From NCBI RefSeq assembly GCF_000026545.1, contig NC_011601.1: 64,000 nt of DNA, one strand, 5' to 3'. Position numbers: made by a program. This DNA is from Escherichia coli O127:H6 str. E2348/69 (GTDB taxonomy: Bacteria > Pseudomonadota > Gammaproteobacteria > Enterobacterales > Enterobacteriaceae). Within the stretch, counting starts at the first letter, position 1, and every line of letters starts with the position of its first letter. This document shows positions 3,001-6,000 of the stretch, piece after piece.

Positions 3001-6000
3001 CACCGTTTTTTGCCAGCTCCCGCGTATAACATATGACGTCCAAAAGCAACTTTTCAGCCTGACGGCGACTCATTGCCGGAGCTGAAGCAATATTGCCGCT
3101 ACCTCGTGCGACACGCATGTTGATAAGCCCGGGGATAGGCTCAGCAGTATCAATACCAACATCAATTACGTGGACGTTAGCGCCCGCTTGTGCTGCCAGC
3201 ACACACACGCCGGTTGTTCCGCGGGTCATATTTTCAGCCTGTATGGCTGTCACTTCTTTTGGAGAAATAGCGACCCCTTCCTCCCAGACGCCGTGATCGG
3301 CACACATAACCAGTATCGCTTTTTTGCCCACATGCGGTATGCCATTCAACCCCGGCATTCCTGCCAGTTGTATGGCAAGCGCCTCCAGCTTTCCCAGGCT
3401 ACCAACAGGTTTGAGTAACCCGTCAATATGCCGTTGTGCACGCGACATAGCGGCAGGATCGATGGCTGGGATCGTATTCAGTAAATCGGCAAGTATTTGC
3501 ATGTCACGTCTCTTTATAGCAGTGCCAGCAGGAAAACCAGTTCACCAAGCTCTATGGCTGCTCCCAGCGTATCGCCCGTTTGCCCGCCCAGCGTACGTTT
3601 GAGAAGCTGACCGAGGATGAAAATCGCCACCATCGTCACCACCATAGCAGCCACACCATGCATACCCGGCAATAATACGGCAGCAAAAATAGCGGCTAAG
3701 CCGAGTGTGACGCAGGTTTGTCGCCCATCAATTTTGCCAATGAACACATTGCCAAGCCCTTCTTCCCGCGCATAACGATGACGATACATCAATAATGCGG
3801 CAGTCCCGCGGCTGACCGCACATGCTGCCGCCAGCGATGCAAGGATCGGTTCGCCACGCAGAGTCAACTCGCTTAACACCAGAATCTTTGCCAGTACCAC
3901 AAAAATCAATGCCAGACCGCCGTGGGTGCCTAAACGGCTATCACGCATGATTTCCAACATGCGATCGCGGCTACGTGCAGAAAATACGCCATCACAGGTA
4001 TCAGCGAGGCCGTCCAGGTGGAATCCCCCGGTCATCAGCGCCAGCACAAGTACGCTAAACAGTGCCGCCAGTGGTACGCCACACCATGCCTGCAGCACCA
4101 TGAAGACCAGCCCGCTAATCGCGCCAAGCAATAATCCAATCAAAGGAAAAGTAATAATACCGCGAGAATAATGCTCGAAATCCAGTCCCTGGGACCAGCG
4201 ACGCGGTACAGGCAGACGCGTAATAAATGAGAGCATCGCCCAAAATAATTTACTCATTTGATTTTTACTCCAATACCCGAAACCACCAGCCATACTTCAT
4301 TTGCCGCAGCGGCCAACTGCTGATTTACCCGCCCGGCAATATCACGAAAATGTCGTGCCAGACGACTCTCCGGCACAATCCCCATTCCCACTTCGTTAGT
4401 CACTAATACAACCTTTGCGGGGCAACGTTGGCAGGCAGCAATCAACGACTGAATCTCAGCATTAATCGCCTGTTCCATCGCCTGATAATCCCATTCATCA
4501 GGGTCTTTATCGCCGCCATAATCAAACAACAGATTAGTCACCATTGTGGTAACGCATTCCAGCAACACAGCCTCATTCGGGTTAATGTCTGCATGAATTA
4601 ATTCATCAAGATGTTGCCAGCGCTCCACTGTGCGCCAGTGCTCCGGGCGGCCTTGCCGATGATGTTCTATCCGTGCAGCCATCTCATCATCAAGGATTTG
4701 CGAGGTAGCGATATACAGAACCTGTGAAGAGTCCCCAATAAGCGCCTCTGCGTGGCGACTCTTCCCGCTCCGTGCGCCCCCCGTCACCAAAATCATCATA
4801 CCGACTCCTGATTCAATTGTATGATGGTATTCATTGAACAGAACAATGGATCCCCCACCGTTGCTGACCGCAAAACATTTACGCGATTAATACTGCGCGT
4901 AATATAATTAAAAATCCAGCATTCTCAATCCATTACGAAAGAAGATGGCATTGCGGAATAGCCAGACTTCCTCGTGTTAACGTCCGACAAAATGCGTCAT
5001 TGACAGCGGTTTCTCTGGCATGACAGATCTCATTCAGATAATGGATTAATGCTACAGCCCCACCAGCCGGACCATTCAGCAAACGGGCATTGTGTTCTGC
5101 AATCAAAATTACCGTCGTTCCCTCAGAATGAGCGAGCCATTCTGGTACGGATATCTCGCTTTCAGCTGCTATCAATAGCAGCACTGAATAATCGCTATAC
5201 GCATCTGATAACGATTGCACAGGCCCACCGTCAAAAGGCTGGAAATCTTGCTGCCAGTCCTCACCAACAAAACAGGTTATTGGCAATATTTCCGCCAGAT
5301 GTTTCGCCAGATCCACATCTCCAGATAAGAGGCAAAAAAGAGCTATCGATTCGGGTTTTATCGTTTTCATGCCCCTCGCCCTCCACTTAATTTCCTGTAA
5401 TGGCGGTCTGGTTGATAAGCCATGAAACAAGATTGCCACACCTTAAGTGCAGCCCTGGTGCCTGTCGGCACTGCGATGAAAGAACTAAATGATGCCGCCA
5501 TACCCTGATCCTTTCAGGATGGTAGGGGTATAAAGACGCGCCTGTACTCTACCGGACGCTTCCGGGCAACCCACTTCCCACCGAAGTTGTTGGTATTGAC
5601 TGACTGGCTGGTCTTCTGGCTTAGCGTCATCCTCTCCCGACCTTCCCAATCTCGCGATCAGTGGCATTTTCGGGTTTGTCAGCATTACAGCAGCGGGGGC
5701 TGCGAGGGATTTTCACCCTCTTCCCAGGCACAAATGTGCCACACCTGTCAGCGTATGTTATGAGCTGATTTCACTTTTCCCATAACAGGTAAATAACGTT
5801 AATTATTCATTGCAGAGTTTATTTAAACCGTCCTCTTTTTTTGGGGCATTTACTCTATACCGTTTCCATCGCCGCATTATCACTCACTTGCTGTCGATAC
5901 ACCTGCGGCGTAACCTGATAAGTCTGACGGAAAACTTTGCAAAAATAACTTGTTTGCGAAAAACCTAAATTACGCGCAATGCTGGCGATGCTCCAGTCAC

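Follow-up and report, generated by a model that had tools for sequence, protein, structure and literature searches.

A cobalamin riboswitch retained in Escherichia is predicted to control a chimeric leader open reading frame and a CbiG fragment upstream of cobUST

Escherichia coli is the textbook case of a bacterium that does not make vitamin B12 de novo but completes it from cobinamide, and in strain K-12 this salvage is said, after Lawrence and Roth in 1995, to rely on the cobUST operon and to proceed without a riboswitch. The cob leader of Salmonella is reported to act by translational repression through a hairpin that sequesters the ribosome-binding site (RBS), in the work of Richter-Dahlfors, Ravnum and Andersson between 1992 and 2001, whilst in Listeria monocytogenes a B12 riboswitch beside pocR reportedly drives an antisense RNA, AspocR (Mellin and colleagues, 2013). 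In Mycobacterium tuberculosis a B12 translational OFF switch upstream of ppe2 acts on a short upstream open reading frame (ORF) with an overlapping stop and start, and translation of this ORF is needed for the downstream gene (PMC11260477). Here we describe a cobalamin riboswitch lying between pocR and cobUST in a 64,000 nucleotide (nt) stretch of the chromosome of the enteropathogenic E. coli (EPEC) O127:H6 strain E2348/69 (contig NC_011601.1), hereafter the window. The account that we favour, and regard as probable, is that the riboswitch, a 44-codon leader ORF and a 145-codon fragment of cbiG (here cbiG') form a unit shaped by three old deletions.

The minus strand of the window carries, in order, pduF, pocR, the riboswitch and ORF interval, cobU, cobS, cobT and ldtA, and the pdu operon lies on the plus strand, divergent from the pocR side. 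Positions 4200-6900 are 100% identical to the E2348/69 chromosome. The features of the locus are as follows.

5855..6772, minus strand: pocR, AraC-family regulator of pdu and cob (NCBIfam NF047788, 547 bits, cut-off 500; RefSeq PGAP annotation)
5764..5854, minus strand: pocR-to-aptamer spacer of 91 nt, without about 230 nt present in intact operons
5589..5763, minus strand: cobalamin riboswitch aptamer, RF00174 (covariance model, 109.4 bits)
5502..5588, minus strand: expression platform with RBS-sequestering hairpin (aligned with Salmonella, Citrobacter and Klebsiella leaders)
5367..5501, minus strand: 44-codon leader ORF beginning at the ancestral cbiA ATG (alignments)
4933..5370, minus strand: cbiG', 145-codon CbiG N-terminal-domain fragment (NF004463)
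~4800..4955, minus strand: dead cbiP 3' remnant, which is the cobU upstream region (tblastn, blastn, DNA alignment)
4901..4928, minus strand: promoter-like site TTGAGA-16-TATATT inside the cbiP remnant (10/12 consensus match only)
4254..4799, minus strand: cobU, adenosylcobinamide kinase/guanylyltransferase (NF004469, 247.5 bits, cut-off 161)
3514..4257, minus strand: cobS, cobalamin synthase (TIGR00317, 304 bits, cut-off 110; PGAP start)
2423..3502, minus strand: cobT, nicotinate mononucleotide:dimethylbenzimidazole phosphoribosyltransferase (NF000996, 467 bits, cut-off 306)

An Rfam scan of the whole window placed RF00174 at 5589-5763 on the minus strand with 109.4 bits against a gathering threshold of 31.5 (E=1.7e-26), aligned over the full model (1-189 of 189) with AAGCCAGAAGACCAGCC in the model core (B12 box). 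The riboswitch that an earlier note on this DNA had placed at about 5590-5745 on the same strand is thereby upheld, and is already present in the RefSeq PGAP annotation of E2348/69. Scores of 105-113 bits were obtained in eight other Escherichia lineages (E. albertii, E. marmotae, E. whittamii, Escherichia sp. E4736, three divergent 'E. coli' and E. fergusonii), comparable to the 114 bits of the riboswitch in the intact Citrobacter sedlakii operon. Window positions 5767-5493, which span the aptamer, the CAACAACUUCGGUGGGAAGUGGG element and the RBS hairpin and take in the cbiA ATG at 5501, are 81-85% identical to the Salmonella and Citrobacter cbiA leader, so that the position and orientation which the note had likened to the Salmonella leader reflect orthology. 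The RBS hairpin (AUCCUGA-AAGGA-UCAGGGU, 5520-5502) directly abuts the AUG (5501-5499); both hairpin and cbiA start align with the Salmonella, Citrobacter and Klebsiella leaders, and the lone C-to-U change in E2348/69 preserves pairing as U.G. The minimum free energy fold of the whole leader was uninformative as a signal (z=-1.3). The comparisons above and the substitution densities given below strongly support the view that riboswitch and translational platform alike are functional and held by purifying selection, and the E2348/69 leader is predicted to bind adenosylcobalamin (AdoCbl) and thereby to alter expression of the ORF that follows. Some Citrobacter and Enterobacter cob leaders (L024, L039, L045) carry an insertion of about 130 nt, GC-rich and by eye resembling a repetitive extragenic palindromic (REP) element, between the platform hairpins just 5' of the RBS hairpin.

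Downstream of the platform a mechanical ORF search gives a 168-codon frame with a GTG start (4933..5439), which the earlier note had related to the C-terminus of CbiP. The frame exists, but the only NCBIfam match of its product is to CbiG, cobalt-precorrin-5A hydrolase (NF004463, E=2.2e-20, profile positions 1-126 of 351), and the identification with CbiP was rejected, the CbiP match lying in another frame. The conserved start is the ATG at 5370, which yields the 145 amino acids that PGAP calls a 'hypothetical protein'. This cbiG' product, MKTIKPESIALFCL..., aligns with MNTVKPESIALFCL... of intact CbiG and shows 35-39% identity to the N-termini of intact CbiGs, a set that share over 90% identity with one another. 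An AlphaFold model made with a CbiG alignment had a predicted local distance difference test score (pLDDT) of 71 and a predicted template modelling score (pTM) of 0.67, with 3EEQ, a CbiG homologue, as the top Foldseek match in the PDB; a sequence search of the PDB with cbiG' gave no match. No stand-alone family of CbiG N-terminal proteins emerged from an exhaustive phmmer search, whose 30 matches were all Escherichia fragments, intact CbiGs or frameshifted pieces. Judged by its length (145 against about 351 amino acids) and its lack of the middle and C-terminal (CobE-like) domains, cbiG' cannot be a CbiG enzyme.

The leader ORF (5501-5367) consists of about 20 cbiA-derived codons followed by a cbiF-like 3' end, the resemblance of its terminal 'YQPDRHYRK' to the CbiF C-terminus YAADFSHEYRKA* (asterisk, stop) being weak, and its TGA overlaps the cbiG' ATG as ATGA. 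A candidate intrinsic terminator or attenuator inside it (5453-5425) was rejected, its stem being lost in the SCPM lineage and its U-run broken in E2348/69. From 5370 to about 4971 the window corresponds to the 5' third of cbiG, after which cbiG' enters a cbiP-derived stretch out of frame and stops. The cbiP 3' remnant itself (about 4955-4800) holds the last ~50 codons with in-frame stops and a frame change ('RNGLRMLDF*LYYAQY*S' against RKGLEPLDSTFQYAQYKS of CbiP) and runs contiguously into cobU. The best CbiP match (tblastn, 4952-4878, CbiP residues 454-478, 44% identity, E=0.03) is in a frame other than that of the 168-codon ORF and shares with its 3' end just the first ~18 nt, whilst blastn against the intact operon is contiguous with cobU from 4830 and the DNA aligns collinearly with the 3' end of C. 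sedlakii cbiP. The possible cbiP remnant of the earlier note is therefore real as a dead cbiP tail but distinct from the 168-codon ORF, most of it lying beyond the 3' end of that ORF. The marks of a neutral pseudogene, stops or frameshifts and a dN/dS near 1, were found in the cbiP tail alone and not in cbiG'.

We mapped the history of the locus against the complete C. sedlakii operon (L092: pocR, riboswitch, cbiA-cbiP, cobUST, ldtA) and against partial operons from Salmonella, other Citrobacter and Klebsiella. The comparison therefore indicates at least three deletions: about 0.23 kb of the upstream leader (~230 nt 5' of the aptamer, including a promoter-like site found in intact operons), about 5.9 kb from cbiA codon ~20 to the 3' end of cbiF, and about 7.5 kb from cbiG codon ~130 to cbiP codon ~455. 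The net effect is a reduction of 14.1 kb of cbi genes (17 genes in the intact operon) to about 0.7 kb. The loss of the de novo cbi genes and the integrity of cobUST, whose three products all score above their NCBIfam cut-offs, are as the earlier note described; the loss took at least three deletions, not one. The pocR stop lies about 100 nt from the aptamer in all Escherichia lineages against 310-350 nt in Salmonella and Citrobacter, and the conserved promoter-like TTGTCA-16/17-TAAAAT found about 90-115 nt past pocR in intact taxa (L025 11000-11027; L092 918-946) has no homologue in the E2348/69 pocR-aptamer spacer. Likewise, in the window scan the minus strand showed no promoter-like and no terminator-like site from pocR to the aptamer. 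The arrangement is consistent with derivation from a Salmonella/Citrobacter-type operon, with which it is syntenic in Citrobacter, by internal deletions, and it is probably the ancestral Escherichia form of the cob locus.

This anatomy alters what the riboswitch would control. It does lie 3' of pocR and 5' of cobUST, as had been noted, but the leader is not fused directly to the salvage genes: it gates the 44-codon chimeric ORF coupled to cbiG', and cobU starts further downstream, 133 nt past the end of cbiG', behind a conserved spacer with its own promoter-like site (4928-4901, ~100 nt 5' of cobU). The -35-like hexamer of that site is invariant except in E. albertii and its -10-like hexamer is loosely conserved. 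On the minus strand no conserved terminator-like site separates the riboswitch from cobUST, so read-through into cobUST is possible.

Selection was assessed first by substitution density, as parsimony changes per site across six lineages. The aptamer (0.19) and the platform (0.23) change 3-4 times less than the unconstrained flanks (0.57-0.86), with values of 0.59 for the pocR-aptamer spacer, 0.57 for the leader ORF, 0.47 for cbiG' and 0.86 for the cbiG' tail; the cbiP-remnant spacer (0.29), cobU (0.29) and pocR (0.30) lie between. Both the leader ORF and cbiG' are open in all nine lineages, with the start and overlapping stop conserved, and also in four E. coli genomes chosen by DNA similarity alone; the length of the leader ORF is 44 codons throughout these lineages and genomes. 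In a neutral simulation using the parsimony substitution counts, the probability that cbiG' would be open by chance was 3e-4 for seven lineages and 0.013 for the four lineages that had been found independently of the protein. The dN/dS of cbiG' by the NG86 method was 0.41 against 0.71+-0.11 under stop-avoiding neutral evolution, a value as low being seen in 0/1000 simulations, and changes in codons 1-119 fell 56/44/93 by codon position (p=4e-5). The tail (codons 120-145; 21/22/24) is apparently unconstrained, and the leader ORF (32/31/34) shows no amino-acid constraint. The G+C content of third codon positions (GC3) of cbiG' has fallen from 0.67 in intact cbiG to 0.40; its decay as an artefact behind the third-position excess was ruled out, with GC3=GC2=0.40 and GC-to-AT changes equalling AT-to-GC changes at third positions. 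That cbiG' is a fast-evolving yet real coding sequence, and not a dead pseudogene, is well supported by the pattern of change.

Two species provide natural experiments. In E. albertii cobT is deleted and cobU survives as a pseudogene that lacks 148 nt, shows no codon periodicity and carries 0.136 lineage-specific changes/site, and the spacer 5' of cobU has also decayed (0.174 lineage-specific changes/site), whereas the aptamer has undergone one lineage-specific change in 175 nt. The first ATG of E. albertii cobU has become CTG (L005, 6435-7877), and its cobS is kept under strong purifying selection, with lineage-specific changes of 12/6/62 by codon position. In E. fergusonii (L098) the locus runs from pdu and pduF through pocR, a 120-nt gap and a riboswitch of 112.9 bits to the same platform, a leader ORF, cbiG', a REP-like spacer and ldtA, and cobU, cobS and cobT are absent from the locus, the rest of the genome not having been searched. 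Its leader ORF, 49 codons long, opens at the cbiA ATG and closes at the ancestral cbiF stop, with a 20-nt overlap into cbiG' (156 codons) of the kind seen in intact operons. The fragment is found across the species, a single exact sequence occurring on 177 contigs. Against other Escherichia its cbiG' shows a dN of 0.36-0.42 with saturated dS of 1.2-1.8 (dN/dS, or omega, 0.21-0.32) and codon-position differences of about 47/27/68 (p=1.4e-4), the neighbour genes in this comparison having a dN of 0.08-0.12; the interior of the leader ORF is unalignable between E. fergusonii and the other lineages, though open in both. Feedback on cobUST cannot be why the switch is retained, since the riboswitch persists both in E. 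fergusonii, whose locus lacks cobUST, and in E. albertii, which has lost cobU and cobT. It is well supported by these loci that the unit maintained is riboswitch, leader ORF and cbiG', independent of cobUST in cis; B12 control of cobUST itself is plausible.

With unchanged junctions, the architecture recurs in loci found by way of PocR (L013-L015), from E. whittamii and from two divergent 'E. coli' that represent GTDB species, and also in E. albertii, E. marmotae, Escherichia sp. E4736 and another divergent lineage (L005-L011). Of 5,426 complete E. coli genomes, 643 (~12%) keep the riboswitch, the two ORFs and pocR; the cobU-to-pocR stretch was found in 641, against the 643 with the riboswitch region. 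Among E. coli without pdu at least four independent deletion endpoints fall inside cbiG' (5273, 5104, 5059 and ~4987), and every deletion variant spares 4800-4987, the cobU upstream region. This conserved proximal region with its promoter-like site would explain riboswitch-less cobUST expression in K-12-type strains. At the loci examined (L002-L004), two E. coli deletion types join the cbiG' end to a pduV 3' remnant next to tmaR and yeeA, and the K-12-type breakpoint abuts insertion sequence (IS) remnants. One genome (L094, E. coli 17MR471) keeps the riboswitch and an intact cbiG' despite an N-terminally truncated pocR. Another, Escherichia sp. MOD1-EC7003 (L046), has an intact cbi operon with a Klebsiella-like leader and cbiG and a PocR 84% identical to the query, and may be either a mislabelled genome or a transferred locus.

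Several results weigh against the unit as we have described it. The cbiG' score against NF004463 is 73 bits where the cut-off is 546, a Pfam scan of the ORF product gave no match, CbiG_N, CbiG_mid and CbiG_C included, and cbiG' lacks seven residues of the conserved GATGIAVRVLAPL motif; its non-synonymous rate is 4-5 times that of the neighbour genes. Openness of the leader ORF is weak evidence alone (P=0.1-0.3 in the neutral simulation), the terminator-like hairpin inside it is without conservation, and the interval 5501-4800 contains no C-rich, G-poor Rho-loading tract (C/G <=1.1 throughout). About 88% of complete E. coli genomes have lost the riboswitch along with pdu and pocR, cbiG' is dispensable in most E. 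coli, and K-12 reportedly salvages cobinamide with no riboswitch. Several of the Escherichia loci were moreover found via the intact protein, an ascertainment bias that is only partly offset by the four-lineage test and the E. coli genomes picked by DNA.

The earlier note's own explanation, a single cbiA-cbiP deletion that fused the PocR- and riboswitch-controlled leader to cobUST, with B12 feedback on cobinamide salvage for pdu as its role and the ORF as a cbiP leftover, draws on the orthology of the riboswitch with the cbiA leader, the intact cobUST on the same strand with no terminator-like site between, and the cbiP 3' remnant adjoining cobU. The CbiG identity of the ORF and the E. fergusonii riboswitch, which has no cobUST at its locus, already refute it as a full account, and it is further strained by the three deletions, the lost promoter-like region of the intact operon, the E. 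albertii aptamer that stayed constrained after loss of cobU and cobT, a cobU spacer conserved in its own right and kept by the E. coli deletion variants that lose the riboswitch, and the nonsense codon in pduC of E2348/69; we consider it unlikely. The ORFs might instead be open merely for ribosome traffic, as protection against polarity or for transcript stability, with a functionless CbiG' polypeptide. Such a role would suit the leader ORF and cbiG' codons 120-145, which are open without amino-acid constraint, and the conserved start/stop overlap (ATGA; 20 nt in E. fergusonii), but it sits poorly with protein-level constraint on codons 1-119 (omega 0.2-0.4, codon-position pattern 3>1>2) and with E. 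fergusonii, where ldtA alone lies downstream, has its own conserved upstream region and leaves nothing that needs protection from polarity, so that we doubt it.

A third possibility is that the riboswitch, which has lost its own promoter region and lies some 90-120 nt past the pocR stop, is a B12-responsive 3' element of the pduF-pocR mRNA that tunes PocR and pdu. The spacer is short in all Escherichia, no promoter- or terminator-like site separates pocR from the aptamer, riboswitch retention tracks pocR in complete E. coli (643 against 641), and in Listeria a B12 riboswitch reportedly controls pocR via antisense RNA (Mellin et al., 2013). The RNA levels of pocR and cbiG' are also similar in strain LF82 (PMC4509574). 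Physical linkage explains the co-occurrence equally well, however, one genome has the riboswitch with a truncated pocR, there is no evident mechanism by which an OFF switch on downstream translation would regulate an upstream ORF, and the coding constraint on cbiG' is left unexplained; this explanation seems distinctly improbable. Least credible of all, and barely worth entertaining, is that the pocR-cobU interval is the decaying debris of a lost operon, in spite of the stops in the cbiP remnant, the 35-39% identity of cbiG' to intact CbiG, its fall in GC3 (0.67 to 0.40) and the loss of the region from most E. coli. The aptamer and platform are 3-4 times more conserved, with full Rfam scores where synonymous sites are saturated, cbiG' is open in all lineages (P=3e-4) with an omega well below neutral, and recent gene flow as a source of artefact is disfavoured by 16-47% divergence within the ORF.

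Under the favoured account of a riboswitch-leader ORF-cbiG' unit, the RNA would arise either by extension of the pduF-pocR transcript or at an as yet unrecognised promoter directly 3' of pocR. With AdoCbl bound, the RBS hairpin would block initiation at the leader ORF, coupled translation of cbiG' would be switched off via the stop/start overlap, and the loss of translation might, through polarity or mRNA decay, lower the read-through share of cobUST expression, cobUST also being served by its own proximal promoter region. This scheme is based on the orthologous Salmonella leader and on general riboswitch behaviour (PMC5282855), from which we infer the ligand response, the coupling and the polarity onto cobUST; any function of a CbiG' protein is likewise putative. 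In LF82 cbiG' is annotated as 'CbiG' (LF82_328), and its reads per kilobase per million (RPKM) in pure-culture RNA-seq were 16.7/13.0, with 7.3/10.8 for pocR and 0.2-4.5 for the pdu genes (PMC4509574), levels compatible with co-transcription of cbiG' and pocR. We suggest, tentatively and with more doubt than confidence, that CbiG' is a domesticated small protein, controlled by the riboswitch via the coupled leader ORF and kept with pocR and pdu genus-wide since the loss of de novo B12 synthesis. If so, CbiG' would be useful under AdoCbl scarcity, for example in handling or sensing incomplete corrinoids, and the cob riboswitch would persist owing to CbiG' rather than to cobUST.

Other observations concern the neighbourhood. 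The pduC gene of E2348/69 (9408-11009, plus strand) carries a CAA-to-TAA nonsense change at codon 534 (window 11007-11009; CGCCTGTAAGGGGAA against CGCCTGCAAGGGGAA in E. albertii, Escherichia sp. E4736 and a divergent E. coli lineage), which strips the last 21 residues of the diol dehydratase large subunit. PGAP flags the gene as a pseudogene, and the nonsense codon weakens for E2348/69 the earlier suggestion that salvage supplies AdoCbl to the adjacent pdu enzymes. A divergent 'E. coli' lineage shares 98.4% identity with E2348/69 in cobS but only ~89% in the flanking genes (comparison with L010, L011 and L014), which suggests a recombination patch confined to cobS. The small RNA STnc230 (RF02075, 76 bits) lies at 6833-6916 on the plus strand between pocR and pduF, both of which are on the minus strand, and is kept in every Escherichia locus examined, E. 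fergusonii included. Other Rfam matches in the window, the His operon leader (RF00514, 130 bits, 32471-32594, plus strand), JUMPstart (RF01707, 56208-56246, minus strand) and STnc240 (RF02074, 29658-29732, minus strand), are ordinary for the his/O-antigen chromosomal region.

No description of the riboswitch-leader ORF-cbiG' arrangement was found in the literature searched, where the only mentions were the LF82 'CbiG' annotation with its RNA-seq values (PMC4509574) and a remark that strain MP1 has pocR and pdu; a paper on CobS toxicity held nothing on regulation. The riboswitch annotation is already known, and what we did not find described is a conserved orphan cob riboswitch that would gate a fossil leader ORF and a selected CbiG fragment across Escherichia, and that in E. 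fergusonii stands at a locus lacking cobUST. The locus records what remained to the genus on losing the B12 pathway. In about 12% of complete E. coli, and in five or more further Escherichia species, a cob riboswitch that looks functional persists with no remaining biosynthetic target. It may serve as an instance in nature of a riboswitch taking a new target once its operon has decayed, it offers a testable candidate for a new small B12-regulated protein in strains with pdu (linked to gut inflammation in adherent-invasive E. coli, AIEC, and present in EPEC), and it bears on the proposed loss-and-reacquisition history of cob and pdu in enteric bacteria.

Compared with known systems, the E2348/69 locus follows pocR as the S. 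enterica cob leader does, and shares with it the aptamer, the CAACAACUUCGGUGGGAAGUGGG element and the RBS hairpin, which in both stands directly 5' of the aligned cbiA AUG. It lacks the separate promoter and the ~455-475-nt leader beginning ~100 nt past pocR that belong to the Salmonella type, and gates a 44-codon cbiA'-'cbiF chimera where the Salmonella leader gates cbiA. E. coli K-12 shares cobU, cobS and cobT by ldtA and tRNA-Asn, with the cbiP-remnant spacer 5' of cobU, but K-12-type genomes retain only the last ~172 nt of cbiG', and riboswitch, pocR and pdu are gone, with IS remnants present. The cbiG' product corresponds by homology to CbiG residues ~1-130, and its model shows the N-terminal alpha/beta domain of that enzyme, although without the middle and C-terminal domains and with the GATGIAVRVLAPL motif partly lost. 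As reported for Listeria AspocR, a cobalamin riboswitch lies immediately 3' of pocR in a pdu/cob locus, but the Listeria riboswitch drives an antisense RNA, whilst the one here shares its strand with pocR and has kept its translational platform. M. tuberculosis ppe2 is unrelated in sequence and organism, and the E. coli leader ORF is a fossil of two biosynthetic genes, but the arrangement that we propose is the same in that a B12 switch would act via a translated, overlapping leader ORF.

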